Positions 1 through 54,954 of a DNA stretch of 64,000 nucleotides are shown here, in pieces. The position numbers were made by a program, and so were the translations under genes. Below the pieces are notes generated by a model. It worked only from the letters and a program-made list of their open reading frames with translations. It had not been told where the DNA came from and searched no databases. Origin of the DNA: Balanoglossus misakiensis (taxonomy: Eukaryota; Animalia; Hemichordata); assembly GCA_040954595.2 (NCBI GenBank), contig JBECUI020000027.1:310001-374000 (forward strand). The letters are read 5' to 3'. Positions within the stretch are counted from its first letter, which is position 1; every line of letters begins with the position of its first letter.

Positions 1-69
1 GCTATACGGTTTTTTTGTAACCGTGCTGTCTCTGTTTTGTCAATTCTTCTTAGCTGATTATTGGGAAAG

Positions 70-21444: not shown

Positions 21445-22625
21445 ATGATCAGCAATTTAAGGAAACTCACTCACTCACTCACTCACTCACTCACTCACTC
21501 ACTCACTCACTCACCAACTCTTGCGCGTTAGGACTTCAAAGAAAGCCTAGTTCCCTTCGCCGTTTTTCCCCGTTAAAAGCAATACTTTTCTGTATAATCC
21601 CAGCGCTGTTCCTGACAGGCTGCGGCCCCACCGGTCCAAGTCGAGAAACCCTCATAACAACTTTGACCATCAACGGCCTGGAGGGAGTGGCAACAGTTGA
21701 TGAAACCAAAACCGTTTTTTCTTTTGATAAACTAGACTCAGGTGCGGTAAGCACCTTTGACCTCAGCGTATCCCCTGGGGCCACGGTTACCCATGCCGAC
21801 GGTACCGCTCTGACGGCTGAGAATCTTCTTATTGGCGAGGAATTCCCCGTGCTCGTTACCGCAGAGGATGGACTTACTACCCAAACCTACACCTTATTAA
21901 TTACCGGGGATATTCTCATTACCAACAAATACAGCAACGGCTACTACGTCTGGTTTGACCTAACCTTGCATCAAAACACTACGGTGGATTTCTACGCAGT
22001 AGAAGAAGGAACGACCCTGCCCAGCGCCGATTCTGTGGCGGCCATGGATGACACCGATGGGGACCAGGCCGTTGACGGACAACACTTCAGAGATGCCTTG
22101 GTTGCCGGGGAACCCCACCGTATTGTTCTGTACAACTTGGACACCTCCAAAAACTACGATATTGGCAGCTATTTCAGTGATGCTAAGTATCCCGGCTCTC
22201 ACGCCGCTGTTTTGACACAGATGACTACAGCCGCAGAACCCAGCACTACCGGCAAGGTGGTTTGGCAGGCTTACGAAGGGCAGCGAATTATTCTGCCGCC
22301 TGCAAGGTTGTTGTCAAATAATGATCTTGCTGAAACATCCAAAGCTCATAGTCTTTACGTACGAAAAACTACAGCAGAGGGGGAGCAAGTCATCTACAAT
22401 TTATTTAATATAATTCCAGATAATTCTTATTCGTTCGGCCCTCAGTACAACCCAGCTATTTATCAGACTGTAGAGGTTCTTTTTACTCCTCCGGGATATT
22501 ATTTCATAAATTTTACAGATGTTATGAAATCACAAGAAGGCATATATTGGGTTCGATGGGGGGACGAAGATGCCGATACCGATTTCCCCGATGACTATAT
22601 TGATTTGCGCATCATAGAAAGGTAG
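21445..22625 (+). CDS. Variable lipoprotein copy 1, phase OFF ((CTCA)12)
   Basis: AGGAGG-ATG; ATG-to-LTING distance 218 nt, out of frame; downstream ORF intact. Confidence 0.88.
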
Positions 22626-23071
22626 TCTTTGTCTCGGCAGGGGATGTGCTGTTCTCATGCTAGGACGGCTGCCAAAGAATGCCATGGAGAAAGAAAAGAA
22701 AGGCTCCCGTTGGGGCCACAATGATGACTTTTCAGCAACCTCTAGGCCTGGGCAGTCCCTCGGGAACTAGAGGGAGTAAAAACGATAAGAAGAATCTGCT
22801 TACTGGTACCCCCAAAGCCCTAGAATAGGCTTTCGGGGTGTGCCCGCTCCCAGATGCCCGGAAAACCCTAGCCAGCACCCTAATCTCCCTATGATTCCTA
22901 TGCTTTTCCTCGGTTACTAACCAAGAAAAGATCATTTCACCCCCTTACCAAACAATAAAGAGATAACACCCCCCCTTGATAAAATCCAGATAGCGAGATA
23001 GACTGAAGCTTAAGTTCAAATCTAGTAAACCAAAGCCTTGTAAGAGGCTATTTTTAAGGAGGCATACAAAG

Positions 23072-24255
23072 ATGATCAGCAATTTAAGGAAACTCACTCA
23101 CTCACTCACTCACTCACTCACTCACTCACTCACTCACTCACTCACTCACTCACCAACTCTTGCGCGTTAGAACTTCAAAGAAAGCCTAATTCCCTTCGCC
23201 GTTTTTCCCCGTTAAAAGCAATACTTTTCTGTTTAATCCCAGCGCTATTCCTGGCAGGCTGCGGCAGCCCCACTCCGAGCAGTGAAGCCCTCATAACAAC
23301 TTTGACCATCAACGGCCTGGAGGGAGTGGCAACAATTGATGAAACCAAAGCCGTTTTTTCTTTTGATAAACTAGACTCAGGTGCGGTAAGCACCTTTGAC
23401 CTCAGCGTATCCCCCGGGGCCACGGTTACCCATGCCGACGGTACCGCTCTGACGGCTGAGAATCTTCTTATCGGCGAGGAATTCCCCGTGCTCGTTACAG
23501 CAGAGGATGGACTTACTACCCAAACCTACACCCTATTAATTACCGGGGATATTCTGATTACCAACAAATACAGCAACGGCTACTACGTCTGGTTTGACCT
23601 AACCTTGCATCAAAACGCTACGGTGGATTTCTACGCAGTAGAAGAAGGAACGACCCTGCCCAGCGCCGATTCCGTGGCGGCCATGGATGACACCGATGGC
23701 GACCAGGCCGTCGACGGTCGACACTTCAAAGATGACTTGGTTGCCGGGGAACCCCACCGTATTGTTCTCTACAACCTGGACACTTCCAAAAACTACGATA
23801 TTGGCAGCTATTTCAACGATGGTAAGTATCCCGGCTCTCACGCCGCTGTATTGACACAGATGACTACAGCCGCAGAACCCAGCACCACGGGCAAGGTGGT
23901 TTGGCAGGCTTACGAAGGGCAGCGAATCATTCTGCCGCCTGCAAGGTTGATGTCAAGGAATGATCTATCTGCTGGATCACCCGCCACTCAGTCTCTTTTC
24001 GTAAAAGAAACTACGGGAGAGAATAGAAGGGATATATATATAATCACTCCAGGTTCCTATCAATTGGGCAATGAGTACGAGGCTCCTATAGATCAGACTA
24101 TAAAGCTTATTTTTGCTCCTATGGGATATTATTTCGTAAACTTTGAGGATGTTATGAAATCACAAGAAGGCATATATTGGGTTCGAGTGTCGGCAATAAA
24201 TGACGATACCGATTCCCCCGATGACTATATTGATTTGCGCATCATAGAAAGGTAG
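23072..24255 (+). CDS. Variable lipoprotein copy 2, phase OFF ((CTCA)15)
   Basis: Distance 230 nt; LAGC lipobox; downstream ORF intact. Confidence 0.88.
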
Positions 24256-24699
24256 TCTTTGTCTCGGCAGGGGATGTGCCGTTCTCATGCTGGGACAGCT
24301 GCCAAGAATGCCATGGAGAAAGAAAAGAAAGGCTCCCCTTGGGGCCCAAATGATGACTTTTCAGTAACTTCCAGGCCTAAGCAGTCCCTCGGAGGCTAGA
24401 GGGAATAAAAACGATAAGAAGAATCTGCTTACTGGTACCCCCAAAGCCCTAGAATAGGCTTTCGGGGTGTGCCCGCTCCCCGATGCCCGGGACACCTTAG
24501 CCAGCACCCTAATTCCCTATGGCTACTACGCTTTTCTCAAGTTATTGACCAAAGAACAGACCATTTCTCCCCTTACCAAACAATAAAGAGATAACACCCC
24601 CCCTTGATAAAATCCAGATAGCGAGATAGACTGAAAGTTAAGTTCAAATCTAGTAAACTAAAGCCTTGTAAGAGGCTATTTTTAAGGAGGCATACAAAG

Positions 24700-25884
24700 A
24701 TGATCAGCAATTTAAGGAAACTCACTCACTCACTCACTCACTCACTCACTCACTCACTCACTCACTCACTCACTCACCAACTCTTGCGCGCTAGAACTCC
24801 AAAGAAAGCCTAGTTCCCTTCGCCGTTTTTCCCCGTTAAAAGCAATACTTTTCTGTTTAATCCCAGCGCTGTTTCTGACAGGATGCGGCAGCCCCACTCC
24901 GAGCAGTGAAGCCCTCATAACAACTTTGACCATCAACGGCCTGAGGGAGTGGCAACAGTTGATGAAACAAAAGCCGTTTTTTCTTTTGATAAACTAGACT
25001 CCAGCACGGTAAGCACCTTTGACCTCAGCGTATCCCCCGGGGCCACGGTTACCCATGCCGACGGTACCGCTCTGACAGCTGAAAATCTTCTTATCGGCGA
25101 GGAATTCCCCGTGCTCGTTACCGCAGAGGATGGGCTTACTACCCAAACCTACACCCTGTTAATTACCGGGGATATTCTCATTACCAACAAGTACAGCAAC
25201 GGCTACTATGTCTGGTTTGACCTAACCTTGCATCAAAATGCTACGGTGGATTTCTACGCAGTAGAAGAAGGAACGACCCCGCCCAGCGCCGATTCCGTGG
25301 CGGCCATGGATGACACCGATGGCGACCAGGCCGTTGACGGTCGGCACTTCAGAGATGACTTGGTTGCCGGGGAACCCCACCGTATTGTTCTGTACAACCT
25401 GGACACCTCCAAAAACTACGATATTGGCAGCTATTTCAACGATGGTAAGTATCCCGGCTCTCACGCCGCTGTTTTGACACAGATGACTACAGCCGCAGAA
25501 CCCAGCACTACAGGTAAGGTGGTTTGGCAGGCTTACGAAGGGCAGCGAATCATTCTGCCGCCTGCAAGGTTGTTGTCAAATAACGATATACCTGCTGGAA
25601 CAACCGAATCTCATTCTCTTCATGTGCAAAAAACTACGGCAGAGGGGGAGGTAGTCATTTCTCATATATTTTTAGTAACAAGTAGCTATCTTATCGGCGA
25701 TGATTATGACGACATTATTCATCAGACTATAGAGGTTATTTTTTCTCCTCTGGGATATTATTTCATAAATTTTAAGGATGTTATGAAATCACAAGAAGGC
25801 ATATATTGGGTTCGAAAGTCGGCAGCTGAGGACGATACCAATTCCCCCGATGACTATATTGATTTGCGCATCATAGAAAGGTAG
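24700..25884 (+). pseudogene. Variable lipoprotein copy 3, phase OFF ((CTCA)14) with an extra 1-bp deletion
   Basis: CTGAGGGAG at ~24941 instead of CTGGAGGGAG; could be a sequencing error. Confidence 0.75.
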
Positions 25885-26331
25885 TCTTTGTCTCGGCAGG
25901 GGAGGTGCCGTTCTCATGCTGGGACGGCTGCCAGGAATGCCATGGAGAAAGAAAAGAAAGGCTCCCCTAGGGGGGGCCCCATGATGACTTTGCAGTAACT
26001 TCCAGGCCCAATCACTCCCTCGGGGACTAGAGGGAGTAAAAACGATAAGAAGAATCTGCTTACTGGTACCCCCAAAGCCCTAGAATAGGCTTTCGGGGTG
26101 TGCCCGCCCCCAGATGCCCGGAAAACCCTAGCCAGCACCCTAATCTCCCTATGATTCCTATGCTTTTCCTCGGTTACTAACCAAGAACAGACCATTTCTC
26201 CCCTTACCAAACAATAAAGAGATAACACCCCCCCCTTGATAAAATCCAGATAGCGAGATAGACTGAAGCTTAAGTTCAAATCTAGTAAACTAAAGCCTTG
26301 TAAGAGGCTATTTTTAAGGAGGCATACAAAA

Positions 26332-27502
26332 ATGATCAGCAATTTAAGGAAACTCACTCACTCACTCACTCACTCACTCACTCACTCACTCACTCACTCA
26401 CTCACTCACCAGCTCTTGCGCGTTAGGACTTCAAAGAAAGCCTAATTCCCTTCGCCGTTTTTCCCCGTTAAAAGCAATACTTTTCTGTTTAATCCCAGCG
26501 CTGTTCCTGACAGGCTGCGGCAGCCCCACTCCGAGCAGTGAAGCCCTCATAACAACTTTGACCATCAACGGCCTGGAGGGAGTGGCAACAATTGATGAAA
26601 CCAAAGCCGTTTTTTCTTTTGATAAACTAGACTCAGGTGCGGTGACCGCCTTTGACCTCAGCGTATCACCCGGGGCCACGGTTACCCATGCCGACGGTAC
26701 CGCTCTGACAGCTGAAAATCTTCTTATCGGCGAGGAATTCCCCGTGCTCGTTACAGCAGAAGATGGGCTTACTACCCAAACCTACACCCTGTTAATTACC
26801 GGGGATATGCTCATTACCAACAAGTACAGCAACGGCTACTATGTCTGGTTTGACCTAACCTTGCATCAAAATGCTACGGTGGATTTCTACGCAGTAGAAG
26901 AAGGAACGACCCTGCCCAGCGCCGATTCCGTGGCGGCCATGACTGACACCGATGGCGACCAGGCCATCGACGGTCGACACTTCAGAGATGACTTGGTTGC
27001 CGGGGAACCCCACCGGATTGTTCTTTACAACTTGGACACCTCCAAAAACTACGATATTGGCGGCTATTTCAACGATGGTAAGTATCCCGGCTCTCACGCC
27101 GCTGTATTGACACAGATGACTACAGCCGCAGAACCCAGCACTACGGGCAAGGTGGTTTGGCAGGCTTACGAAGGGCAGCGAATCATTCTGCCGCCTGCAA
27201 GGTTGATGTCAAGGAATGATCTTGCTGGAACAAGCCTAGGTCATTCTTTTGCCGTACGAAGAACTACGGGAGAGAGTGGAAGGAATATATATCTAATCAC
27301 TTCAGGTTCCTATTTCTGGAGCACTTACTACGAGGCTCCTATACATCAGACTATAGAGGTTATTTTTGCTCCTCTAGGATATTATTTCGTAAACTTTGAG
27401 AATGTTATGAAATCACAAGAAGGCATATATTGGGTTCGATGGTTTGCGGAAGGTACCGATTCCCCCGATGACTATATTGATTTACGCATCATAGAAAGGT
27501 AG
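26332..27502 (+). CDS. Variable lipoprotein copy 4, phase OFF ((CTCA)14)
   Basis: Distance 226 nt; downstream ORF intact. Confidence 0.88.
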
Positions 27503-27951
27503 TCTTTGTCTCAACAGGGGATCTGCTGTTCTCATGCTGGGACGGCTGCCAAGAATGCCATGGAGAAAGAAAAGAAAGGCTCCCCTTGGGGCCAAAATGA
27601 TGACTTTTCAGTAACTTCCAGGCCCAATCACTCCCTCGGGGACTAGAGGGAGTAAAAACGATAAGAAGAATCTGCTTACTCCCCACCCCTGAAGGCCCTA
27701 GGGCAGGCTTTCTGGGGACTGCCCGCTCCCAGATGCCTTGAAAACCTTAGCCAGCACCCTAATTCCCTATGGCTACTACGCTTTTTCTCAAGTTACTGAC
27801 CAAAGAACAGACCATTTCTCCCCTTACCAAACAATAAAGAGATAATACCCCCCCCTTGATAAAATCCAGATAGCGAGATAGACTGAAATTTAAGTTCAAA
27901 TCTAGTAAACTAAAGCCTTGTAAGAGGCTATTTTTAAGGAGGCATACAAAG

Positions 27952-29119
27952 ATGATCAGCAATTTAAGGAAACTCACTCACTCACTCACTCACTCACTCA
28001 CTCACTCACTCACTCACTCACTCACTCACCAGCTCTTGCGCGTTAGGACTTCAAAGAAAGCCTAATTCCCTTCGCCGTTTTTCCCCGTTAAAAGCAATAC
28101 TTTTCTGTTTAATCCCAGCGCTGTTTCTGACAGGATGCGGCAGCCCCACTCCGAGCAGTGAAGCCCTCATAACAACTTTGACCATCAACGGCCTGGAGGG
28201 AGTGGCAACAGTTGATGAAACCAAAGCCGTTTTTTCTTTTGATAAACTAGACTCAGGTGCGGTAAGCACCTTTGACCTCAGCGTATCCCCCGGGGCCACG
28301 GTTACCCATGCCGACGGTACCGCTCTGACAGCTGAAAATCTTCTTATTGGCGAGGAATTCCCCGTGCTCGTTACCGCAGAGGATGGACTTACTACCCAAA
28401 CCTACACCCTATTAATTACCGGGGATATGCTCATTACCAACAAATACAGCAACGGCTACTATGTCTGGTTTGACCTAACCTTGCATCAAAATGCTACGGT
28501 GGATTTCTACGCAGTAGAAGAAGGAACAGCCCTGCCCAGCGCCGCTTCCGTTTCGGCCATGGATGACACCGATGGCGACCAGGCCATCGACGGTCGGCAC
28601 TTCAGAGATGCCTTGGTTGCCGGGGAACCCCACCGTATTGTTCTTTATAACTTGGACACCTCCAAAAACTACGATATTGGCAGCTATTTCAACGATGGTA
28701 AGTATCCCGGCTCTCACGCCGCTGTTTTGACACAGATGACTACAGCCGCAGAACCCAGCACTACAGGTAAGGTGGTTTGGCAGGCTTACGAAGGGCAGCG
28801 AATTATTCTGCCGCCTGCAAGGTTATTGTCAAATAATGATCTATCTGGAGCTGAAACGCACATGTTTTACGTACGGACAACTGTGGCAGTAGCGGATATA
28901 TTTGAAATGTTTTCAGGTACCTATCAGTTTGCCTCTTATTACGACCCAGCTGTTTATCATACCATAGAGATTATTATTGCTCCCCTGGGATATTATTTCA
29001 TAAATTTTAAGGATGTTATGAAATCACTAGAAGGTATATATTGGGTTCGATGGACGGCAGACGCTCAGGATACCAATTCCCCCGATGACTATATTGATTT
29101 GCGCATCATAGAAAGGTAG
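27952..29119 (+). CDS. Variable lipoprotein copy 5, phase OFF ((CTCA)14)
   Basis: Distance 226 nt; downstream ORF intact. Confidence 0.88.
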
Positions 29120-29278
29120 TCTTTGTCTCGGCAGGGGATGTGCCGTTCTCATGCTAGGACGGCTGCCAAGAATGCCATGAAGAAAGAAAAGAAAGGCTCC
29201 CCTTGGGGCCCAAATGATGACTTTTCAGTAACTTCCAGGCCTAAGCAGTCCCTCGGGGGCTAGAGGGAGTAAAAACGA

Positions 29279-29295
29279 TAAGAAGAATCTGCTTA
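29279..29295. promoter_or_regulatory. 17-bp imperfect palindrome TAAGAAGA-A-TCTGCTTA (example; one per array spacer)
   Basis: Arms TAAGAAGA and TCTGCTTA (one mismatch); ~175 bp upstream of the -35 box; function unknown. Confidence 0.5.
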
Positions 29296-29470
29296 CTGGT
29301 ACCCCCAAAGCCCTAGGACAGGCTCTCGGGGTGTGCCCGCTCCCAGATGCCCGGGAAACCCTAGCCAGCACCCTAATTCCCTATGGCTACTACGCTTTTT
29401 CTCAAGTTATTGACCAAGAAAAGATCATTTCACCCCCTTACCAAACAATAAAGAGATAACACACACCCCC

Positions 29471-29499
29471 TTGATAAAATCCAGATAAGGAGATAGACT
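29471..29499 (+). promoter_or_regulatory. Putative sigma70 promoter of copy 6 (equivalent present in every unit)
   Basis: TTGATA-17 bp-TAGACT (TAAACT in some units); AGGAGG at 29552-29557. Confidence 0.65.
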
Positions 29500-29566
29500 G
29501 AAAGTTAAGTTCAAATCTAGTAAACTAAAGCCTTGTAAGAGGCTATTTTTAAGGAGGCATACAAGG

Positions 29567-30751
29567 ATGATCAGCAATTTAAGGAAACTCACTCACTCAC
29601 TCACTCACTCACTCACTCACTCACTCACTCACTCACTCACCAACTCTTGCGCGTTAGGACTTCAAAGAAAGCCTAGTTCCCTTCGCCGTTTTTCCCCGTT
29701 AAAAGCAATACTTTTCTGTTTAATCCCAGCGCTGTTCCTGACAGGCTGCGGCAGCCCCACTCCGAGCAGTGAAGCCCTCATAACAACTTTGACCATCAAC
29801 GGCCTGGAGGGAGTGGCAACAATTGATGAAACCAAAGCCGTTTTTTCTTTTGATAAACTAGACTCAGGTGCGGTGACCGCCTTTGACCTCAGCGTATCAC
29901 CCGGGGCCACGGTTACCCATGCCGACGGTACCGCTCTGACGATGGCTAATCTTGTTATTGGCGAGGAATTCCCCGTGCTCGTTACCGCAGAGGATGGACT
30001 TACTACCCAACCCTACACCTTATTAATTACCGGGGATATGCTCATTACCAACAAATACAGCAACGGCTACTATGTCTGGTTTGACCTAACCTTGCATCAA
30101 AACGCTACGGTGGATTTCTACGCAGTAGAAGAAGGCACTACCCTACCCAGCGCCGATTCCGTGGCGGCCATGGATGACACCGATGGCGACCAGGCCGTCG
30201 ACGGTCGGCACTTCAGAGATGCCTTGGTTGCCGGGGAACCCCACCGTATTGTTCTCTATAACTTAGACACTTCCAAAAACTACGATATTGGCAGCTATTT
30301 CAGTGATGCTATGTATCCCGACTCTCACGCCGCTGTATTGACACAGATGACTACAGCCGCAGAACCCAGCACCACGGGCAAGGTGGTTTGGCAGGCTTAC
30401 GAAGGGCAGCGAATTCTTCTGCCGCCTGCAAGGTTGTTGTCAAGGAATGATCTTGCTGGAACATCCGAAACTCATGGTCTTTACGTACGAAAAACTACAG
30501 CAGAGGGAGAGGAAGTCATCTACAATTTATATCTTATGTTTTCAGACAGTACTTATACGATCGGCTCTGATTACAACCAAGCTATTCATCAGACTATAGA
30601 GGTTATTTTTGATCCTCTGGGATATTATTTCATAAATTTTACAGATGTTATGAAATCACAAGAAGGCATATATTGGGTTCGATGGGCGGAAGAAGATGCC
30701 GATACCGATTTCCCCGATGACTATATTGATTTGCGCATCATAGAAAGGTAG
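29567..30751 (+). CDS. Variable lipoprotein copy 6, phase ON ((CTCA)13): signal peptide, cadherin-like/Ig beta-sandwich domain, variable C-terminus
   Basis: 394-aa ORF reads through the tract as (LTHS)n to the lipobox LFLTG-C61; the VTAEDGxTTxxY motif is typical of cadherin-like beta-sandwich domains. Confidence 0.92.
   Translation: MISNLRKLTHSLTHSLTHSLTHSLTNSCALGLQRKPSSLRRFSPLKAILFCLIPALFLTGCGSPTPSSEALITTLTINGLEGVATIDETKAVFSFDKLDSGAVTAFDLSVSPGATVTHADGTALTMANLVIGEEFPVLVTAEDGLTTQPYTLLITGDMLITNKYSNGYYVWFDLTLHQNATVDFYAVEEGTTLPSADSVAAMDDTDGDQAVDGRHFRDALVAGEPHRIVLYNLDTSKNYDIGSYFSDAMYPDSHAAVLTQMTTAAEPSTTGKVVWQAYEGQRILLPPARLLSRNDLAGTSETHGLYVRKTTAEGEEVIYNLYLMFSDSTYTIGSDYNQAIHQTIEVIFDPLGYYFINFTDVMKSQEGIYWVRWAEEDADTDFPDDYIDLRIIER
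29588..29639 (+). repeat. (CTCA)13 simple-sequence repeat in the signal-peptide coding region (present in all 20 copies, n = 8-27)
   Basis: Directly visible; in frame only when n mod 3 = 1. Confidence 0.97.
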
Positions 30752-31198
30752 TCTTTGTCTCGGCAGGGGATGTGCTGTTCTCATGCTAGGACGGCTGCCA
30801 AAGAATGCCATGGAGAAAGAAAAGAAAGGCTCCCGTTGGGGCCAAAATGATGACTTTTCAGCAACCTCTAGGCCTGGGCAGTCCCTCGGAGACTAGAGGG
30901 AGTAAAAACGATAAGAAGAATCTGCTTACTGGTACCCCCAAAGCCCTAGAATAGGCTTTCGGGGTGTGCCCGCTCCCAGATGCCCGGGAAACCTTAGCCA
31001 GCACCCTAATTCCCTATGGCTACTACGCTTTTTCTCAAGTTATTGACCAAGAAAAGATCATTTCACCCCCTTACCAAACAATAAAGAGATAACACCCCCC
31101 CCTTGATAAAATCCAGATAAGGAGATAAACTGAAAATTAAGTTCAAATCTAGTAAACCAAAGCCTTGTAAGAGGCTATTTTTAAGGAGGCATACAAAG

Positions 31199-32366
31199 AT
31201 GATCAGCAATTTAAGGAAACTCACTCACTCACTCACTCACTCACTCACTCACCAGCTCTTGCGCGCTAGAACTCCAAAGAAAGCCTAGTTCCCTTCGCCG
31301 TTTTTCCCCGTTAAAAGCAATACTTTTCTGTCTAATCCCAGCGCTGTTCCTGACAGGCTGCGGCAGCCCCACTCCGAGCAGTGAAGCCCTCATAACAACT
31401 TTGACCATCAACGGCCTGGAGGGAGTGGCAACAATTGATGAAACCAAAGCCGTTTTTTATTTTGATAAACTAGACTCCGGTACGGTAAGCACCTTTGATC
31501 TCAGCGTATCCCCGGGGGCCACGGTTACCCATGCCGACGGTACCGATCTGACGGCTGAAAATCTTCTTATCGGCGAGGAATTCCCCGTGCTCGTTACCGC
31601 AGAGGATGGACTTACTACCCAAACCTACACCTTATTAATTACCGGGGATATACTCATTACCAACAAATACAGCAACGGCTACTACGTCTGGTTTGACCTA
31701 ACCTTGCATCAAAATGCCACGGTGGATTTCTACGCAGTAGAAGAAGGCACTACCCTACCCAGCGCCGCTTCCGTGGAGGCCATGGATGACACCGATGGCG
31801 ACCAGGCCGTCGACGGTCGGCACTTCAGAGATGCCTTGGTTGCCGGGGAACCCCACCGTATTGTTCCCTACAACTTGGACACCTCCAAAAACTACGATAT
31901 TGGCGGCTATTTCAGTGATGCTAAGTATCCCGGCTCTCACGCCGCTGTATTGACACAGATGACTACAGCCGCAGAACCCAGCACCACGGGCAAGGTGGTT
32001 TGGCAGGCTTACGAAGGGCAGCGAATCATTCTGCCGCCTGCAAGGTTGTTGTCAAATAACGATTTACCTGTTGGAACATCCAAATCTCATAGTCTTTACG
32101 TACGAAAAACTACAGCAGAGGGGGAGCAAGTCATCTACAGTTTATTTAAGATAATTTCAGATAATTATTATTCGTTCGGCCCTCATTACAACCCAGATAT
32201 TTATCAGACTGTAGAGGTTCTTTTTACTCCTCCGGGATATTATTTCATAAACTTTGAGGATGTTATGAAATTACAAGAAGGTATATATTGGGTTCGATGG
32301 ACGGAAGAAGCTGACGATACCGATCCCCCCGATGACTATATTGATTTGCGCATCATAGAAAGGTAG
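31199..32366 (+). CDS. Variable lipoprotein copy 7, phase OFF ((CTCA)8)
   Basis: Distance 202 nt; downstream ORF intact. Confidence 0.88.
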
Positions 32367-32817
32367 TCTTTGTCTCGGCAGGGGATGTGCCGTTCTCATG
32401 CTGGGACGGCTGCCAAGGATGCCATGAAGAAAGAAAAGAAAGGCTCCCCTTGGGGCCAAAATGATGACTTTTCAGTAACTTCCAGGCCCAATCACTCCCT
32501 CGGGGACTAGAGGGAGTAAAAACGATAAGAAGAATCTGCTTACTCCCCACCCCTGAAGGCCCTAGGGCAGGCTTTCTGGGGACTGCCCGCTCCCAGATGC
32601 CTTGAAAACCTTAGCCAGCACCCTAATTTCCTATGGCTACTACGCTTTTTCTCAAGTTACTGACCAAAGAACAGACCATTTCTCCCCTTACCAAACAATA
32701 AAGAGATAATACCCCCCCCCCTTGATAAAATCCAGATAGCGAGATAGACTGAAAGTTAAGTTCAAATCTAGTAAACTAAAGCCTTGTAAGAGGCTATTTT
32801 TAAGGAGGCATACAAAG

Positions 32818-33998: not shown

Positions 33999-34449
33999 TC
34001 TTTGTCTCGGCAGGGGAGGTGCCGTTCTCATGCTGGGGCGGCTGCCAGGAATGCCATGGAGAAAGAAAAGAAAGGCTCCCGTTGGGGCCCAAATGATGAC
34101 TTTTCAGCAACCTCTAGGCCTGGGCAGTCCCTCGGAGACTATAGGGAGTAAAAACGATAAGAAGAATCTGCTTACTGGTACCCCGAAAGCCCTAGGATAG
34201 GCTTTCGGGGTGTGCCCGCTCCCAGATGCCCGGAAACCCTAGCCAGCACCCTAATCTCTCTATGATTCCTATGCTTTTTTTCTCTCAAGTTATTGACCAA
34301 AGAACAGACCATTTCTCCCCTTACCAAACAATAAAGAGATAACACCCCCCCCCTTGATAAAATCCAGATAGCGAGATAGACTGAAAGTTAAGTTCAAATC
34401 TAGTAAACTAAAGCCTTGTAAGAGGCTATTTTTAAGGAGGCATACAAAG

Positions 34450-42124: not shown

Positions 42125-42573
42125 TCTTTGTCTCGGCAGGGGATGTGCCGTTCTCATGCTGGGACGGCTGCCAAGGATGCCATGAAGAAAGAAAAGAAAG
42201 GCTCCCCTTGGGGCCCAAATGATGACTTTTCAGTAACTTCCAGGCCCAATCACTCCCTCGGGGACTAGAGGGAGTAAAAACGATAAGAAGAATCTGCTTA
42301 CTGGTACCCCCCAAAGCCCTAGAATAGGCTTTCGGGGTGTGCCCGCTCCCCGATGCCCGGGAAACCCTAGCCAGCACCCTAATTCCCTATGGCTACTACG
42401 CTTTTTCTCAAGTTACTAACCAAGAACAGACCATTTCACCCCCTTACCAAACAATAAAGAGATAACACCCCCCCCCCTTGATAAAATCCAGATAAGGAGA
42501 TAAACTGAAAGTTAAGTTCAAATCTAGTAAACCAAAGCCTTGTAAGAGGCTATTTTTAAGGAGGCATACAAAG

Positions 42574-43757: not shown

Positions 43758-43831
43758 TCTTTGTCTCGGCAGGGGATGTGCCGTTCTCATGCTGGGACGG
43801 CTGCCAAGGATGCCATGAAGAAAGAAAAGAA

Positions 43832-45182: not shown

Positions 45183-45562
45183 GAAAAGAAAGGCTCCCCT
45201 TGGGGCCCAAATGATGACTTTTCAGTAACTTCCAGGCCCAATCACTCCCTCGGGGACTAGAGGGAGTAAAAACGATAAGAAGAATCTGCTTACTGGTACC
45301 CCCAAAGCCCTAGAATAGGCTTTCGGGGTGTGCCCGCTCCCCGATGCCCGGGAAACCCTAGCCAGCACCCTAATTCCCTATGGCTACTACGCTTTTTCTC
45401 AAGTTACTAACCAAGAAAAGATCATTTCACCCCCTTACCAAACAATAAAGAGATAACACCCCCCCCTTGATAAAATCCAGATAAGGAGATAAACTGAAAG
45501 TTAAGTTCAAATCTAGTAAACCAAAGCCTTGTAAGAGGCTATTTTTAAGGAGGCATACAAAG

Positions 45563-46727
45563 ATGATCAGCAATTTAAGGAAACTCACTCACTCACTCAC
45601 TCACTCACTCACTCACTCACTCACTCACCAGCTCTTGCGCGCTAGAACTCCAAAGAAAGCCTAATTCCCTTCGCCGTTTTTCCCCGTTAAAAGCAATACT
45701 TTTCTGTTTAATCCTAGCGCTGTTCCTGACAGGCTGCGGCCCCACCGGTCCAAGTCGAGAAACCCTCATAACAACTTTGACCATCAACGGCCTGGAGGGA
45801 GTGGCAACAATTGATGAAACCAAAGCCGTTTTTTCTTTTGATAAACTAGACTCCAGCACGGTAAGCACCTTTGACCTCAGCGTATCCCCCGGGGCCACGG
45901 TGACCCATGCCGACGGTACCGCTCTGACAGCTGAAAATCTTCTTATCGGCGAGGAATTCCCCGTGCTCGTTACTGCAGAGGATGGACTTACTACCCAAAC
46001 CTACACCCTGTTAATTACCGGGGATATGCTCATTACCAACAAATACAGCAACGGCTACTACGTCTGGTTTGACCTAACCTTGCATCAAAACGCTACGGTG
46101 GATTTCTACGCAGTAGAAGAAGGCACTACCCTACCCAGTGCCGATTCCGTGGCGGCCATGGATGACACCGATGGCGACCAGGCCGTCGACGGTCGGCACT
46201 TCAGAGATGCCTTGATTGCCGGGGAACCCCACCGTATTGTTCTGTACAACCTGGACACCTCCAAAAACTACGATATTGGCGGCTATTTCAACGATGGTAA
46301 GTATCCCGGCTCTCACGCCGCTGTTTTGACACAGATGACTACAGCCGCAGAACCCAGCACTACAGGTAAGGTGGTTTGGCAGGCTTACGAAGGGCAGCGA
46401 ATTATTTTGCCGCCTGCAAGGTTATTGTCAAGGAATGATCTTGCTGGAACAAACAGAACTCATTCTCTTTTCGTAAAAGAAACTACGGGAGAGAGTAGAA
46501 GGATTGTATATGTAATCACTCCAGGTTCCTATCAATTGGGCAATCACTACGATGCTTCTATACATCAGACTATAAAGCTTATTTTTGCTCCTATGGGATA
46601 TTATTTCGTAAACTTTGAGGATGTTATGAAATCACAAGAAGGCATATATTGGGTTCGATGGACGCTTACAGATCAGGATACCAATTCCCCCGATGACTAT
46701 ATTGATTTGCGCATCATAGAAAGGTAG
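45563..46727 (+). CDS. Variable lipoprotein copy 15, phase OFF ((CTCA)11)
   Basis: Distance 214 nt; downstream ORF intact. Confidence 0.88.
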
Positions 46728-47178
46728 TTTTTGTCTCGGCAGGGGATGTGCCGTTCTCATGCTGGGACGGCTGCCAAGAATGCCATGAAGAAAGAAAAGA
46801 AAGGCTCCCCTTGGGGCCCAAATGATGACTTTCCAGCAACTTCTAGGCCTAAGCAGTCCCTCGGGGACTAGAGGGAGTAAAAACGATAAGAAGAATCTGC
46901 TTACTCCCCACCCCTGAAGGCCCTAGGGCAGGCTTTCTGGGGACTGCCCGCTCCCAGATGCCTTGAAAACCTTAGCCAGCACCCTAATTCCCTATGGCTA
47001 CTACGCTTTTTCTCAAGTTATTGACCAAAGAACAGACCATTTCTCCCCTTACCAAACAATAAAGAGATAACACCCCCCCCCCTTGATAAAATCCAGATAG
47101 CGAGATAGACTGAAAGTTAAGTTCAAATCTAGTAAACTAAAGCCTTGTAAGAGGCTATTTTTAAGGAGGCATACAAAG

Positions 47179-48380
47179 ATGATCAGAAATTTAAGGAAAC
47201 TCACTCACTCACTCACTCACTCACTCACTCACTCACTCACTCACTCACTCACTCACTCACCCACTCACTCACCAACTCTTGCGCGCTAGAACTCCAAAGA
47301 AAGCCTAATTCCCTTCGCCGTTTTTCCCCGTTAAAAGCAATACTTTTCTGTTTAATCCCAGCGCTGTTCCTGACAGGCTGCGGCAGCCCCACTCCGAGCA
47401 GTGAAGCCCTCATAACAACTTTGACCATCAACGGCCTGGAGGGAGTGGCAACAATTGATGAAACCAAAGCCGTTTTTTCTTTTGATAAACTAGACTCCAG
47501 TGCGGTAAGCACCTTTGACCTCAGCGTATCCCCCGGGGCCACGGTTACCCATGCCAACGGTACCGCTCTGACGGCTGAAAATCTTCTTATCGGCGAGGAG
47601 TTCCCCGTGCTCGTTACAGCAGAGGATGGACTTACTACCCAAACCTACACCCTGTTAATTACCGGGGATATTCTGATTACCAACAAATACAGCAACGGCT
47701 ACTATGTCTGGTTTGACCTAACCTTGCATCAAAATGCTACGGTGGATTTCTACGCAGTAGAAGAAGGCACTACCCTACCCAGCGCCGCTTCCGTTGCGGA
47801 CATGGATGACACCGATGGCGACCAGGCCGTCGACGGTCGGCACTTCAGAGATGACTTGGTTGCCGGGGAACCCCACCGTATTGTTCTGTACAACCTGGAC
47901 ACCTCCAAAAACTACGATATTGGCGGCTATTTCAGTGATGCTAAGTACCCTGGCTCTCACGCCACTGTATTGACACAGATGACTACAGCCGCAGAACCCA
48001 GCACTACGGGCAAGGTGGTTTGGCAGGCTTACGAAGGGCAGCGAATCATTCTGCCGCCTTCAAGGTTGTCGTCAAATAACGATCTATCTGGAAATGAAAC
48101 GCATAAACTTTCCGTACGGAGAACTGTGGCAGGGGTGGAGGAATACCTTATAACTGTATATGAAATCATTCCAGGAGGTCACTATCAATTTGGCTATGAT
48201 TACGATGCAGCTACTCATCAGACTATAGAGGTTATTATTGATCCTCTGGGATATTATTTCATAAATTTTACAGATGTTATGAAATCACAAGAAGGCCTAT
48301 ATTGGATTCGAGTGCCGGCAGAAGGGGACGATACCATTACCCCCGATGAATATATTGATTTGCGCATCATAGAAAGGTAG
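47179..48380 (+). CDS. Variable lipoprotein copy 16, phase OFF (18 units, one interrupted as CCCA)
   Basis: Distance 242 nt; downstream ORF intact. Confidence 0.88.
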
Positions 48381-48833
48381 TCTTTGTCTCGGCAGGGAAT
48401 GTGCCGTTCTCATGCTGGGACAGCTGCCAGGAATGCCATGGAGAAAGAAAAGAAAGGCTCCCCTGGGGGCCCCCATGATGACTTTGCAGTAACTTCCAGG
48501 CCCAATCACTCCCTCGGGAGCTAGAGGGAGTAAAAACGATAAGAAGAATCTGCTTAATGGTACCCCGAAAGCCCTAGAATAGGCTTTCGGGGTGTGCCCG
48601 CTCCCAGATGCCCGGGAAACCCTAGCCAGCACCCTAATTCCCTATAATTCCTATGCTTTTTTTCTCTCAAGTTATTGACCAAAGAACAGACCATTTCACC
48701 CCCTTACCAAACAATAAAGAGATAACACCCCCCCCCCTTGATAAAATCCAGATAAGGAGATAAACTGAAAGTTAAGTTCAAATCTAGTAAACTAAAGCCT
48801 TGTAAGAGGCTATTTTTAAGGAGGCATACAAAG

Positions 48834-50031
48834 ATGATCAGCAATTTAAGGAAACTCACTCACTCACTCACTCACTCACTCACTCACTCACTCACTCACT
48901 CACTCACTCACTCACTCACTCACCAACTCTTGCGCGCTAGAACTTCAAAGAAAGCCTAATTCCCTTCGCCGTTTTTCCCCGTTAAAAGCAATACTTTTCT
49001 GTTTAATCCCAGCGCTATTCCTGGCAGGCTGCGGCAGCCCCACTCCGAGCAGTGAAGCCCTCATAACAACTTTGACCATCAACGGCCTGGAGGGAGTGGC
49101 AACAATTGAGGGAACCAAAGCCGTTTTTTCTTTTGATAAACTAGACTCAGGTGCGGTGACCGCCTTTGACCTCAGCGTATCCCCCGGGGCCACGGTTACC
49201 CATGCCGACGGTACCGCTCTGACGGCTGAAAATCTTGTTATCGGCGAGGAATTCCCCGTGCTCGTTACCGCAGAGGATGGACTTACTACCCAAACCTACA
49301 CCCTGTTAATTACCGGGGATATTCTCATTACCAACAAATACAGCAACGGCTACTACGTCTGGTTTGACCTAACCTTGCATCAAAATGCTACGGTGGATTT
49401 CTACGCAGTAGAAGAAGGAACGACCCTGCCCAGCGCCACTTCCGTTTCGGCCATGGATGACACCGATGGCGACCAGGCCGTTGACGGTCGGCACTTCAGA
49501 GATGCCTTGATTGCTGGGGAACCCCACCGTATTGTTCTGTACAACCTGGACACCTCCAAAAACTACGATATTGGCAGCTATTTCAACGATGGTAAGTATC
49601 CCGGCTCTCACGCCGCTGTTTTGACACAGATGACTACAGCCGCAGAACCCAGCACTACAGGTAAGGTGGTTTGGCAGGCTTACGAAGGGCAGCGAATCAT
49701 TCTGCCGCCTGCAAGGTTGTTGTCAAATAACGATATACCTGCTGGAACAACCGAATCTCATTCTCTTCATGTGCAAAAAACTACGGCAGAGGGGGAGGTA
49801 GTCATTTCTCATATATTTTTAGTAACAAGTAGCTATCTTATCGGCGATGATTATGACGACATTATTCATCAGACTATAGAGGTTATTTTTTCTCCTCTGG
49901 GATATTATTTCATAAATTTTAAGGATGTTATGAAATCACAAGAAGGCATATATTGGGTTCGAAAGTCGGCAGCTGAGGACGATACCAATTCCCCCGATGA
50001 CTATATTGATTTGCGCATCATAGAAAGGTAG
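48834..50031 (+). CDS. Variable lipoprotein copy 17, phase OFF ((CTCA)17)
   Basis: Distance 238 nt; C-terminal half identical to copy 3. Confidence 0.88.
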
Positions 50032-50479
50032 TCTTTGTCTCGGCAGGGGAGGTGCCGTTCTCATGCTGGGACGGCTGCCAGGAATGCCATGGAGAAAGAA
50101 AAGAAAGGCTCCCCTAGGGGGGGCCCCATGATGACTTTGCAGTAACTTCCAGGCCCAATCACTCCCTCGGGGACTAGAGGACGTAAAAACGATAAGAAGA
50201 ATCTGCTTACTGGTACCCCCCAAGCCCTATAATAGGCTTTCGGGGTGTGCCCGCCCCCAGATGCCCGGAAAACCCTAGCCAGCACCCTAATCTCCCTATG
50301 ATTCCTATGCTTTTCCTCGGTTACTAACCAAGAACAGACCATTTCTCCCCTTACCAAACAATAAAGAGATAACACCTCCCCCCTTGATAAAATCCAGATA
50401 AGGAGATAGACTGAAAGTTAAGTTCAAATTTAGTAAACTAAAGCCTTGTAAGAGGCTATTTTTAAGGAGGCATACAAGG

Positions 50480-51654
50480 ATGATCAGCAATTTAAGGAAA
50501 CTCACTCACTCACTCACTCACTCACTCACTCACTCACTCACTCACTCACCAACTCTTGCGCGCTAGAACTCCAAAGAAAGCCTAGTTCCCTTCGCCGTTT
50601 TTCCCCGTTAAAAGCAATACTTTTTTGTTTACTCCTAGCACTTTTCCTGACAAGCTGCGGCCCCACCGGTCCAAGTCGAGAAACCCTCATAACAACTTTG
50701 ACCATCAACGGCCTGGAGGGAGTGGCAACAGTTGATGAAACCAAAGCCGTTTTTTCTTTTGATAAACTAGACTCAGGTGCGGTAAGCACCTTTGACCTCA
50801 GCGTATCCCCCGGGGCCACGGTTACCCATGCCGACGGTACCGCTCTGACAGCTGAAAATCTTCTTATCGGCGAGGAATTCCCCGTGCTCGTTACCGCAGA
50901 GGATGGGCTTACTACCCAAACCTACACCCTGTTAATTACCGGGGATATTCTCATTACCAACAAGTACAGCAACGGCTACTATGTCTGGTTTGACCTAACC
51001 TTGCATCAAAATGCTACGGTGGATTTCTACGCAGTAGAAGAAGGAACGACCCTGCCCAGCGCCGATTCCGTGGCGGCCATGGATGACACCGATGGCGACC
51101 AGGCCGTTGACGGTCGGCACTTCAGAGATGACTTGGTTGCCGGGGAACCCCACCGTATTGTTCTCTACAACTTGGACACCTCCAAAAACTACGATATTGG
51201 CGGCTATTTCAACGATGGTAAGTATCCCGGCTCTCACGCCGCTGTATTGACACAGATGACTACAGCCGCAGAACCCAGCACTACGGGTAAGGTGGTTTGG
51301 CCGGCTTACGAAGGGCAGCGAATCATTCTGCCGCCTGCAAGGTTGATGTCAAGGAATGATCTTGCTGGAACATCCGAAACTCATGGTCTTTACGTACGAA
51401 AAACTACAGCAGAGGGAGAGGAAGTCATCTACAATTTATATCTTATGTTTTCAGACAGTACTTATACGATCGGCTCTGATTACAACCAAGCTATTCATCA
51501 GACTATAGAGGTTATTTTTGATCCTCTGGGATATTATTTCATAAATTTTACAGATGTTATGAAATCACAAGAAGGCATATATTGGGTTCGATGGGCGGAA
51601 GAAGATACCGATTTCCCCGATGACTATATTGATTTGCGCATCATAGAAAGGTAG
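50480..51654 (+). CDS. Variable lipoprotein copy 18, phase OFF ((CTCA)12)
   Basis: Distance 218 nt; duplicate of copy 12. Confidence 0.88.
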
Positions 51655-52102
51655 TCTTTGTCTCGGCAGGGGATGTGCCGTTCTCATGCTGGGACGGCTG
51701 CCAGGAATGCCATGGAGAAAGAAAAGAAAGGCTCCCGTTGGGGCCAAAATGATGACTTTTCAGCAACCTCTAGGCCTGGGCAGTCCCTCGGAGACTAGAG
51801 GGAATAAAAACGATAAGAAGAATCTGCTTACTGGTACCCCCAAAGCCCTAGAATAGGCTTTCGGGGTGTGCCCGCTCCCAGATGCCCGGGAAACCCTAGC
51901 CAGAACCCTAATTCCCTATGGCTACTACGCTTTTTCTCAAGTTATTGACCAAAGAACAGACCATTTCACCCCCTTACCAAACAATAAAGAGATAACACCC
52001 CCCCCCTTGATAAAATCCAGATAGCGAGATAGACTGAAAGTTAAGTTCAAATCTAGTAAACCAAAGCCTTGTAAGAGGCTATTTTTAAGGAGGCATACAA
52101 AG

Positions 52103-53285
52103 ATGATCAGCAATTTAAGGAAACTCACTCACTCACTCACTCACTCACTCACTCACTCACTCACTCACTCACTCACTCACCAACTCTTGCGCGCTAGAAC
52201 TCCAAAGAAAGCCTAATTCCCTTCGCCGTTTTCCCCCGTTAAAAGCAATACTTTTCTGTTTAATCCCAGCGCTGTTCCTGACAGGCTGCGGCCCCACCGG
52301 TCCAAGTCGAGAAACCCTCATAACAACTTTGACCATCAACGGCCTGGAGGGAGTGGCAACAGTTGATGAAACCAAAGCCGTTTTTTCTTTTGATAAACTA
52401 GACTCAGGTGCGGTAAGCACCTTTGACCTCAGCGTATCACCCGGGGCCACGGTTACCCATGCCGACGGTACCGCTCTGACGGCTGAAAATCTTGTTATTG
52501 GCGAGGAATTCCCCGTGATCGTTACTGCAGAGGATGGACTTACTACCCAAACCTACACCCTGTTAATTACCGGGGATATGCTCATTACCAACAAATACAG
52601 CAACGGCTACTATGTCTGGTTTGACCTAACCTTGCATCAAAATGCTACGGTGGATTTCTACGCAGTAGAAGAAGGAACGACCCTGCCCAGCGCCGATTCC
52701 GTGGCGGCCATGGATGACACCGATGGGGACCAGGCCGTTGACGGACAACACTTCAGAGATGCCTTGGTTGCCGGGGAACCCCACCGTATTGTTCTCTATA
52801 ACTTAGACACTTCCAAAAACTACGATATTGGCAGCTATTTCAACGATGGTAAGTATCCCGGCTCTCACGCCGCTGTATTGACACAGATGACTACAGCCGC
52901 AGAACCCAGCACCACGGGCAAGGTGGTTTGGCAGGCTTATGAAGGGCAGCGAATTATTTTGCCGCCTGCAAGGTTATTGTCAAATAACGATCTATCTGGA
53001 GCTGAAACGCATAAACTTTCCGTACGGAGAACTGTGGCAGGGGTGGAGGAATACCTTGTATATGTATATGAACTCATTCCAGGTGCCTATCAATTGGGCG
53101 CTGATTACGACGCAGCTACTCATCAGACTATAGAGGTTATTTTTGATCCTCTGGGATATTATTTCATAAATTTTACAGATGTTATGAAATCACAAGAAGG
53201 CCTATATTGGATTCGAATGCCGGCAGAAGGAAAAAATCTCATTACCCCCGATGAATATATTGATTTGCGCATCATAGAAAGGTAG
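52103..53285 (+). CDS. Variable lipoprotein copy 19, phase OFF ((CTCA)14)
   Basis: Distance 226 nt; 5' part matches copy 13, 3' part resembles copy 16. Confidence 0.88.
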
Positions 53286-53725
53286 TCTTTGTCTCGGCAG
53301 GGGATGTGCCGTTCTCATGCTGGGACGGCTGCCAAGAATGCCATGGAGAAAGAAAAGAAAGACTCCCCTGGGGGCCCCCATGATGACTTTGCAGTAACTT
53401 CCAGCCCCAATCAGTCCCTCGGGGGCTAAGAGCTAGTAAACAAAACGATAAGAAGAATCTGCTTACTGATACCCCCAAAGCCCTAGGATAGGCTTTCGGG
53501 GTGTGCCCTCTCCCAGAGTTCCGGGAAACCTTAGCAAGCACCCTAATCTCCCTATGCTTTTCCTCGGTTACTGACCAAGAACAGACCATTTCTCCCCTTA
53601 CCAAACAATAAAGAGATAACACCCCCCCCTTGATAAAATCCAGATAAGGAGATAGACTGAAAGTTAAGTTCAAATCTAGTAAACTAAAGCCTTGTAAGAG
53701 GCTATTTTTAAGGAGGTATACAAAG

Positions 53726-54954
53726 ATGATCAGCAATTTAAGGAAACTCACTCACTCACTCACTCACTCACTCACTCACTCACTCACTCACTCACTCACT
53801 CACTCACTCACTCACTCACTCACTCACTCACTCACTCACTCACTCACTCACTCACCAACTCTTGCGCGTTAGGACTTCAAAGAAAGCCTAGTTCCCTTCG
53901 CCGTTTTTCCCCGTTAAAAGTAATACTTTTCTGTTTAATCCCAGCGCTGTTCCTGACAGGCTGCGGCCCCACCGGTCCAAGTCGAGAAACCCTCATAACA
54001 ACTTTGACCATCAACGGCCTGGAGGGAGTGGCAACAATTGATGAAACCAAAGCCGTTTTTTCTTTTGATAAACTAGACTCCAGCACGGTAAGCACCTTTG
54101 ACCTCAGCGTATCCCCCGGGGCCACGGTTACCCATGCCGACGGTACCGCTCTGACAGCTGAAAATCTTCTTATCGGCGAGGAATTCCCCGTGCTCGTTAC
54201 TGCAGAGGATGGACTTACTACCCAAACCTACACCCTATTAATTACCGGGGATATGCTCATTACCAACAAATACAGCAACGGCTACTATGTCTGGTTTGAC
54301 CTAACCTTGCATCAAAACGCTACGGTGGATTTCTACGCAGTAGAAGAAGGAACGACCCTGCCCAGCGCCGCTTCCGTGACGGCCATGGATGACACCGATG
54401 GCGACCAAGCCGTCGACGGTCAACACTTCAGAGATGCTTTGGTTGCCGGGGAACCCCACCGGATTGTTCTCTACAACCTGGACACCTCCAAAAACTACGA
54501 TATTGGCAGCTATTTCAACGATGGTAAGTATCCCGGCTCTCACGCCGCTGTATTGACACAGATGACTACAGCCGCAGAACCCAGCACCACGGGCAAGGTG
54601 GTTTGGCAGGCTTACGAAGGGCAGCGAATTATTCTGCCGCCTGCAAGGTTATTGTCAAATAACGATCTATCTGGAACTGATTCGCATAAACTTTCCGTAC
54701 GGAGAACTGTGGCAGGGGTGGAGGAAACCTTTGAATCTGTATATGAATTTCTTCCAGGTGCCTATCAGGTCGCCCCTCAGTACGACTCAGCTATTCATCA
54801 GACTATAGAGGTTATTTTTTCTCCTCTGGGATATTATTTCATAAATTTTACAGATGTTATGAAATCACAAGAAGGTATATATTGGGTTCGAATGACAACG
54901 GGAGGTACCGATTCCCCCGATGACTATATTGATTTGCGCATCATAGAAAGGTAG
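53726..54954 (+). CDS. Variable lipoprotein copy 20, phase OFF ((CTCA)27)
   Basis: Distance 278 nt; longest tract (53747-53854). Confidence 0.88.

Follow-up and report, generated by a model that had tools for sequence, protein, structure and literature searches.

The Opa proteins of Neisseria are beta-barrels encoded at loci scattered over the chromosome, and the vlp lipoprotein genes of Mycoplasma hyorhinis are clustered with insertion sequence (IS) elements between them. The opa genes are complete genes at 9–12 loci, in which a CTCTT repeat in the signal-peptide region sets the reading frame, two hypervariable regions are shuffled by recombination and identical gene pairs occur within one genome (PMC4534519, PMC13183285). 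The paralogous hgp genes of Haemophilus influenzae carry a (CCAA)n tract in the 5′ coding region that turns these surface-protein genes ON or OFF by frame, and the mechanism of both switches is established (PMC4534519, PMC9341677, PMC13183285). In Mycoplasma gallisepticum the vlhA genes are full-length variable lipoprotein genes in tandem, each with its own open reading frame (ORF), promoter and repeat switch, the switch being a trinucleotide repeat upstream of the promoter that acts on transcription (PMC4534519). The vlp genes are separate transcripts, each with its own ON/OFF slip switch, a poly-A run in the promoter, and they vary in size through 3′ repeats (PMC10502178). In the spirochaete Treponema pallidum, repeat-length switching of surface genes acts on transcription through poly-G homopolymers in the promoters of single genes (PMC7864442). 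Here we describe an array of 20 lipoprotein genes, head to tail on one strand, each with a (CTCA)n tract behind its start codon, in a 64,000-nucleotide stretch of a Balanoglossus misakiensis (Hemichordata) assembly (GCA_040954595.2, contig JBECUI020000027.1, positions 310,001 to 374,000); this whole stretch is referred to as the window, and all positions are given in its coordinates.

The array combines opa-type switches with a vlhA-type tandem layout in an undescribed lipoprotein family; its mechanism is not new, and it belongs neither to the Opa, VlhA or Vlp families nor to the silent-cassette systems. Judged from the sequence, slippage of each gene's (CTCA)n tract probably switches translation and would thereby swap the variable tip that is displayed. 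The array differs from opa in its repeat unit, which lies in the n-region of the signal peptide, in having 20 genes in one tandem block, in encoding a lipoprotein with a predicted immunoglobulin (Ig)-fold tip, in the lack of sequence kinship and in belonging to another phylum. Pfam and NCBIfam gave no match to the Opa barrel, the array protein having a lipobox and beta-sandwich models, and none to VlhA or Vlp. In contrast to vlhA, the switch is a coding tetranucleotide frameshift; the protein is also unrelated to Vlp. The hgp genes, with few paralogues and a role in nutrient uptake, are ON at 31.5% and 22.2%, near chance (PMC9341677), against one of 20 genes here. The T. pallidum homopolymers may be comparable to a poly-C run in the array, described below, and promoter poly-G switching was the only spirochaete phase variation in the literature that we found (PMC7864442).

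The preliminary description of this DNA had proposed a candidate new antigenic-variation system. Phase variation of tandem lipoproteins by simple sequence repeats is well supported by our analysis, but "new system" was too strong, as the opa and hgp switch and the vlhA and vlp layout were already known; "antigenic" was an interpretation, and receptor tropism or phage evasion fit as well. The predicted V-set tip, the bias to one in-frame gene in 20, the recombination and the IS element, all set out below, were absent from that description. Neither this locus nor any CTCA-switched lipoprotein array was described in the literature we searched, which took in few of the subscription journals. In this array the opa strategy would have arisen independently in a different phylum, within one 33-kb locus and with about twice as many switches. 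Why few opa genes are in frame when no exclusion mechanism is known is an open question (PMC13183285), for which 20 switches with the same repeat and near-identical leaders provide a natural experiment. A 2025 review calls multi-gene phase variation under-studied (PMC11868660), and in Ca. Mycoplasma girerdii dinucleotide frameshifts in BspA-like genes have been measured from metagenome reads (PMC5476646).

The CTCA tracts and the reading frame

Each of the 20 units has a promoter-like TTGATA-17-TA(A/G)ACT (a consensus match only), an AGGAGG ribosome-binding site (RBS) before the ATG and the start ATG ATC AG(C/A) AAT TTA AGG AAA, followed by the CTCA tract, which always begins 21 bases past the ATG. 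The distance from the ATG to the LTING motif is exactly 170+4n in all 20 units. These features agree with the preliminary description, as does the head-to-tail arrangement of units of about 1.62 kb, with the correction that the spacing is 1608–1655 bp in 18 of the 19 intervals and 2989 bp between units 14 and 15, because an IS256-family element adds 1,359 bp in that spacer. A poly-C run, 4–10 long across the units, stands directly before the -35 box and may tune transcription as a second layer of control. The array is preceded by a degenerate remnant of a further copy, and the spacer 3′ of unit 20 is truncated, both of which would fit gain and loss of units through unequal crossing-over. A conserved hairpin followed by a T run (29529–29544 and equivalents) separates the promoter-like site from the RBS, a possible attenuator that does not rise above the shuffle background; an Rfam scan gave no match.

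The 20 CTCA tracts are the sole tetranucleotide runs of three or more units in the window, and in 100 Markov simulations such runs reached at most three units. Nineteen tracts are perfect, and each is a whole number of units, from 8 to 27. The lengths given earlier hold throughout (Table 1), except that the tract of unit 16 contains one CCCA. The frame from the ATG through signal peptide and body is open only at n≡1 mod 3; at any other n a stop follows after 28–48 codons. Nine tracts are 0 mod 3 and ten are 2 mod 3, which leaves a single gene in frame (unit 6, n=13), where 6.7 are expected at one third (P=0.0033). The shortage persists without units 3, 18 and 19, which are broken or duplicated (1/17, P=0.0096). 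Lengths 12 (four tracts), 14 (six) and 15, 17 and 18 (two each) flank the nearly empty classes 13 (one) and 16 (none). The opa genes show the same shortage, with 1.7 in frame against 3.4 expected (PMC13183285).

The bodies behind the tracts are intact in 19 of the 20 copies, the exception being unit 3, which has a second, one-base frameshift near 24,940 (a real break or an assembly error) and a tip identical to that of unit 17. Units 12 and 18 have no coding difference outside the tract, yet n is 18 in one and 12 in the other. They lie in a duplicated block that is identical over 2,170 bp once the tracts are masked, which implies that the tract changed while no point mutation accrued.

A tract of this kind could also be a neutral or expression-tuning leader, with all copies translated from a start behind it. 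In 19 copies the stretch from the tract to the lipobox contains no in-frame ATG, GTG or TTG, and no Shine-Dalgarno-like sequence is found there in any of the 20. Unit 14 alone has an ATG in frame downstream of its tract (42711), 13 codons ahead of the lipobox cysteine, and (CTCA)n leader ORFs upstream of genes with their own start do exist in two AT-rich spirochaete genomes. However, the exact 170+4n spacing, a predicted RBS accessibility that is independent of n and the avoidance of n≡1 mod 3, which a neutral tract would not show, make this explanation hardly credible.

Selection, recombination and assembly support

The array contains 19 distinct coding sequences, of which 18 distinct intact copies were used to estimate the ratio of nonsynonymous to synonymous substitution rates (dN/dS). 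The signal peptide and stalk are 92–95% identical among copies, with a dN/dS of 0.25 (95% interval 0.16–0.38), which indicates purifying selection. Two hypervariable blocks with a mean identity of 42–43% lie in the last domain, inside a conserved frame. The variable C-terminus noted in the preliminary description is thus a property of that domain and not of the extreme C-terminus, where the last 12 residues are 98% conserved. The dN/dS is 1.34 (0.96–1.91) in hypervariable region 1, 3.0 (1.55–8.1) in region 2 and 1.51 (1.10–2.10) in both jointly, which indicates diversifying selection. For region 1, six hand-picked nearest-neighbour pairs have 98.5 nonsynonymous and 9.5 synonymous differences (ratio of proportions, pN/pS, 3.2; Fisher P=9e-5).

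Recombination among the copies is evident from the incompatibility of site pairs (126 informative sites), which is 0.20 for sites less than 10 bp apart and increases to 0.69 for those more than 250 bp apart (permutation P=0.001). The nearest neighbour of a copy differs from block to block, linkage between the two hypervariable blocks is only weak (Mantel rho 0.16, P=0.045), and along a block of 140 columns unit 6 has exactly the region 1 of units 12 and 18. The intact bodies, the selection and the mosaicism suggest that these are mosaic genes of working quality and not decaying pseudogenes.

Such mosaicism, together with 19 of 20 genes being OFF, could instead point to a silent store, in which OFF copies serve gene conversion into the ON copy and tracts rarely flip back; the unit 6 region shared with units 12 and 18 fits this, and conversion from an expressed copy could itself keep the bodies intact. 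Against it, none of the 20 copies has lost its promoter-like site, RBS, ATG or signal peptide, purifying selection acts on signal and stalk, and 19 tracts are perfect, span 8–27 units and differ between identical copies. The silent cassettes of the pilS type, by comparison, lack promoters and RBSs (PMC4534519). We consider a silent store improbable, in agreement with the earlier view that the array is unlike silent-cassette conversion as in vlsE and tprK, although recombination between copies is present nonetheless.

A further possibility was that errors in long-read consensus or in assembly gave rise to the tract lengths or to some portion of the array. The one-base frameshift of unit 3 is of a long-read error type, the 2,170-bp duplication could be a mis-join, and the order of the units is as assembled. 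Random miscounts, however, would leave one third of the tracts in frame and not one in 20, and all tracts are whole units. A contig of public run X1 matches 55058–60400 (depth 14.3) with zero differences, so that 5.3 kb of flank, including a broken moeA gene, agrees letter for letter; the 19 distinct coding sequences also speak against an artefact. Single contigs in conserved parts of the array have depths of 153–204, and the tip common to units 3 and 17 has a depth of 25.8; these values fit many copies, although contig depth is no copy number. An artefact thus appears very improbable. In runs X1 and X2 (window 24780–26345 and 53860–60400) nothing in the window closely matches two loose contig ends, which perhaps belong to further paralogues elsewhere in the genome or to a second strain.

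The anatomy of the units, the shortage of in-frame genes, the differing tracts in identical copies and the pattern of selection make slipped-strand phase variation well supported, and several observations must be set against it. The P values for the in-frame shortage are too small because the copies are not fully independent, and tract lengths show a weak tendency to be similar where the flanks are similar (Spearman -0.18, P=0.014, from pairs that are not independent). The evidence for tract change comes from within one genome; the three public runs consist of contigs from a single sample and possibly supplied the assembly itself, X1 among them, and none of the listed contigs bridges the array end or fixes the order of units. 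The interval for region 1 touches 1 and comes from a gappy alignment of recombining sequences. Finally, a signal peptide of 60 residues, whose processing is predicted, is unusually long (25 in a relative).

If the tracts act as we propose, replication slippage would change n by single units at a high rate, independently in each gene, and so turn translation ON or OFF. Most copies would stay OFF if each further ON gene carried a cost roughly ten times the switching rate, so that a cell would show none, one or few variants; with the cost set to 10x the switch rate, a toy mutation-selection model puts ON at 4.5% per locus. Over longer times, gene conversion and unequal crossing-over between units would produce new tips and changed copy numbers.

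Predicted structure and role of the tip

Sequence and models together suggest a lipid-anchored protein, likely an adhesin, in which two beta-sandwich stalk domains present a third domain as the tip; the binding face of this tip would be diversified by host receptors or host recognition. For domain 1 of unit 6, the in-frame copy, the structural match is BF4250 (Z 9.2) and the sequence matches are DUF5018/cadherin-like repeats. The full-length model is poor, with a predicted local distance difference test (pLDDT) of 49. When domain 3 was folded alone on 19 copies, pLDDT was 63 and nine strands appeared, ordered A' B C C' C'' D E F G as in the A'GFCC'C''/BED topology of V-set domains. The GC content (guanine plus cytosine) is 42% in the tip domain against 52% in the stalk.

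A Foldseek search with the tip model gave 106 PDB chains at E<=0.001, the best 46 of them being antibody, T-cell receptor, CD8, nectin and BARF1-complex entries (template-modelling score 0.43–0.56), and in a VIA search of 48,161 non-redundant chains the top 50 were all animal Ig-superfamily domains (Z 6.2–7.1). Viral structural matches were led by herpesvirus membrane glycoproteins. On the model, sequence entropy is high for the distal BC loop, C-C'-C'' and the FG loop, the face and loops with which V domains bind, and close to zero for strands A', B, E, F and G. The E-F segment resembles the tyrosine-corner motif of V-set domains. There is no cysteine in the tip, and so no B-F disulphide; some animal V domains (CD2, CEACAM N) also lack it.

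The model evidence makes a V-set-type Ig fold probable. The assignment is tempered by the modest quality of the model (pLDDT 63, predicted template-modelling score 0.58, with 19 near-copies in the alignment), by the absence of any VIA match at Z 8, below which a match may reflect just a common arrangement, by the richness of the PDB in V domains and by a Pfam scan of 19 members that found no V-set or other Ig family. Identity to the V-domain matches is 4–16%. Bacterial adhesins with Ig-like domains are known, for example V-set-like in streptococcal SrpA and I-set-like in IgI3 of beta-protein (PMC8013792). The tip resembles these and the animal V-set in predicted strand order and in variation on the binding face and loops; it differs from the animal V-set in having no cysteines and no Pfam V-set match, and here it forms a switchable, positively selected repertoire of 20 genes.

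Should the tip have a V-type Ig fold on which diversifying selection acts, the array would constitute a bacterial variable-Ig repertoire and bear on the origin of such folds and repertoires outside vertebrate immunity. The stronger proposal, that 20 V-set domains, diversified on their binding loops and face and reshuffled by recombination, act as an antibody-like repertoire of the bacterium, shown about one at a time through independent CTCA switches, recognising host molecules or kin and, in view of the GC difference, possibly captured from an animal, seems doubtful to us.

Selection on the tip need not come from an animal host. With the same switch, the selecting agent could be phage or kin recognition, the tips being phage receptors or self-recognition tags and OFF serving to hide a receptor. 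Homophilic binding through the GFC face is common among V-set domains, and two small CRISPR-like arrays in the window point to exposure to phage. Surface proteins that are hypervariable also evolve where the host has no adaptive immunity (PMC4534519). The neighbouring genes for BspA-type leucine-rich repeat (LRR) and FN3/Ig proteins are typical of host-associated bacteria, and the nearest folds are animal adhesion and immune receptors; neither counterpoint excludes phage. We regard phage or kin as an unlikely selecting agent compared with a host.

Table 1. Features of the array and its surroundings, in window coordinates.
Feature	Position	Strand	Remarks
Tandem array, 20 transcription-unit-like repeats	21349..54954	+	first -35 box to last stop
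Unit 1	21445..22625	+	tract 21466-21513, n=12, out of frame
Unit 2	23072..24255	+	tract 23093-23152, n=15, out of frame
Unit 3	24700..25884	+	tract 24721-24776, n=14, out of frame
Unit 4	26332..27502	+	tract 26353-26408, n=14, out of frame
Unit 5	27952..29119	+	tract 27973-28028, n=14, out of frame
Unit 6	29567..30751	+	tract 29588-29639, n=13, sole in-frame copy; 394-aa prolipoprotein, lipobox Cys61
Unit 7	31199..32366	+	tract 31220-31251, n=8, out of frame
Unit 8	32818..33998	+	tract 32839-32886, n=12, out of frame
Unit 9	34450..35623	+	tract 34471-34526, n=14, out of frame
Unit 10	36070..37261	+	tract 36091-36158, n=17, out of frame
Unit 11	37709..38880	+	tract 37730-37789, n=15, out of frame
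Unit 12	39319..40517	+	tract 39340-39411, n=18, out of frame; coding sequence = unit 18 outside tract
Unit 13	40966..42124	+	tract 40987-41042, n=14, out of frame
Unit 14	42574..43757	+	tract 42595-42642, n=12, out of frame
Unit 15	45563..46727	+	tract 45584-45627, n=11, out of frame
Unit 16	47179..48380	+	tract 47200-47271, 18 units (15 CTCA + CCCA + 2 CTCA), out of frame
Unit 17	48834..50031	+	tract 48855-48922, n=17, out of frame
Unit 18	50480..51654	+	tract 50501-50548, n=12, out of frame
Unit 19	52103..53285	+	tract 52124-52179, n=14, out of frame
Unit 20	53726..54954	+	tract 53747-53854, n=27, out of frame; then truncated spacer
Unit 6 promoter-like site	29466..29499	+	poly-C run (5) directly before TTGATA-17-TAGACT; consensus match only
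Unit 6 signal peptide, 60 aa	29567..29746	+	tract-encoded (LTHS)n in long n-region, h-region about residues 42-60, lipobox LTGC
Unit 6 domain 1, DUF5018/cadherin-like beta-sandwich stalk domain	29774..30037	+	3owr_A, Z 9.2, root-mean-square deviation 2.6, 83 aligned
Unit 6 domain 2, likely FN3-like stalk domain	30038..30361	+	HHalign probability 61%; full-length model unreliable here
Unit 6 domain 3, predicted cysteine-free V-set Ig-like tip	30362..30748	+	predicted model
Hypervariable region 1	30452..30616	+	in model, from distal BC loop over C, C' and C'' to D
Hypervariable region 2	30680..30712	+	FG loop in model, place of complementarity-determining region 3 in antibodies
Duplicated block	39180..41475	+	identical to 50341-52612, 2,170 bp with tracts masked; first tract 18 vs 12, second 14 vs 14
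IS256-family element, spacer 14/15, upstream of unit 15 promoter-like site	43832..45182	-	398-aa transposase, 24-bp inverted repeats, 8-bp target duplication
Remnant (degenerate 3′ part) of another copy	20756..21004	+	ends with family C-terminal motif, then normal spacer
BspA-type LRR proteins (two; second apparently split near end) and FN3/Ig-domain protein with lipoprotein-like leader	14091-20042, 56957-60298, 60428-63931		without repeat switch
moeA	55431-56440		5′-truncated, split by frameshift
CRISPR-like arrays, two small	8748-9218, 9747-9857		7 and 2 copies, ~37-bp repeat, unique ~35-bp spacers, behind duplicated leader
41-bp tandem array	64-775		17 copies; holds reverse complement of motif in nearly every array spacer and at 20520, 55034

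Relatives, source bacterium and neighbouring genes

The array-bearing bacterium is likely a spirochaete, as judged from its GdhA and arginine deiminase sequences. Its GdhA is 71% identical to, and in a quick tree the sister of, the protein of a Spirochaetia metagenome-assembled genome (MAG). That tree holds 39 rows (38 of 80 loci) and does not recover Spirochaetota as one group, for which reason the placement rests also on arginine deiminase: the best cluster (74%) includes Spirochaetaceae records, and the best named match (66%) is Spirochaeta sp. LUC14_002_19_P3, a MAG from a lucinid clam. The seven best genomes all fall in one family of 38.

In that family a single genome matches the array protein (G556), and its two tandem lipoproteins are the closest relatives found. 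They share with the array the lipobox context, domain 1, the start of domain 2 (132 columns, HHalign probability 90%) and an arrangement as a tandem pair with differing C-termini; they differ in having no repeat tract, a 25-residue signal and no detectable tip match. As these relatives lack the tract and (CTCA)5 occurs in none of the 38 genomes, the switch and the expansion look lineage-specific.

Wider searches gave little more. No full-length relative was found by a word-based protein search with unit 6 or by tip alignment among longer proteins, and the tip alignment matched none of the five closest genomes. HMMER against 1.84 billion representatives gave nine matches, to domains 1 or 2 only, and one of 401 sampled Spirochaetota genomes matches, in domain 1 only. 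A PDB sequence search returned no match, scans of GTDB genomes and of metagenomes confirmed none of 28 and 209 pattern matches, and the ESM Atlas gave leads below 0.9 only. Two candidates were set aside: a CEACAM5 construct matched in PDB sequences at E=1, which was out of register, and a viral-contig match (31% over 45 aa), whose frame is open for just 18 residues at the match start. These blanks are weak, because short reads break such arrays, and similar loci may be widely missed in short-read assemblies.

The preliminary description did not recognise the CTCA switch from any known locus. We likewise found no such array, but ATG-proximal CTCA tracts do occur in single genes, including a DNA-methylase-like gene, secreted-protein signal peptides and leader ORFs. 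Three of the 401 spirochaete genomes contain (CTCA)7, in none of the three loci read within a lipoprotein array. A metagenome pattern scan found at least 117 CTCA stretches; 37 of the 117 listed hold short flanks only, and 13 have an open frame of at least 150 aa behind the tract, none of these with a second tract among the matches listed.

Four metagenome contigs (L090, L096, L109, L153) carry a DNA-methylase-like gene with an ATG-proximal (CTCA)n of 11, 9, 12 and 11 units, a candidate phase-variable methyltransferase labelled from a visible motif. Single secreted-protein genes of other bacteria (L108, L110, L122, L162, L172, L190) have (CTCA)7-16 in the n-region of the signal peptide. In two AT-rich spirochaetes, L203 (G126) and L202 (G281), a short (CTCA)15-20 leader precedes methyltransferase-like ORFs with their own start, and in two of the three cases the tract comes immediately behind RBS and ATG; since no frame fuses leader and gene, n may act there through translational coupling. 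A similar CTCA leader precedes a membrane-protein ORF in L204 (G386).

The genes around the array (Table 1) include BspA-type LRR genes and a broken moeA, whose break is likely real because run X1 has the same letters; together with the IS, these suggest host association. Among the 18 window ORFs scanned (Pfam, NCBIfam) there was no recombinase or reverse transcriptase of the kind expected beside invertase shufflons or diversity-generating retroelements (DGRs), and no cas gene; no array unit is inverted, and two 148-aa ORFs at the CRISPR-like arrays are likely spurious. The motif shared by the 41-bp tandem array and the array spacers is likely a dispersed repeat element.

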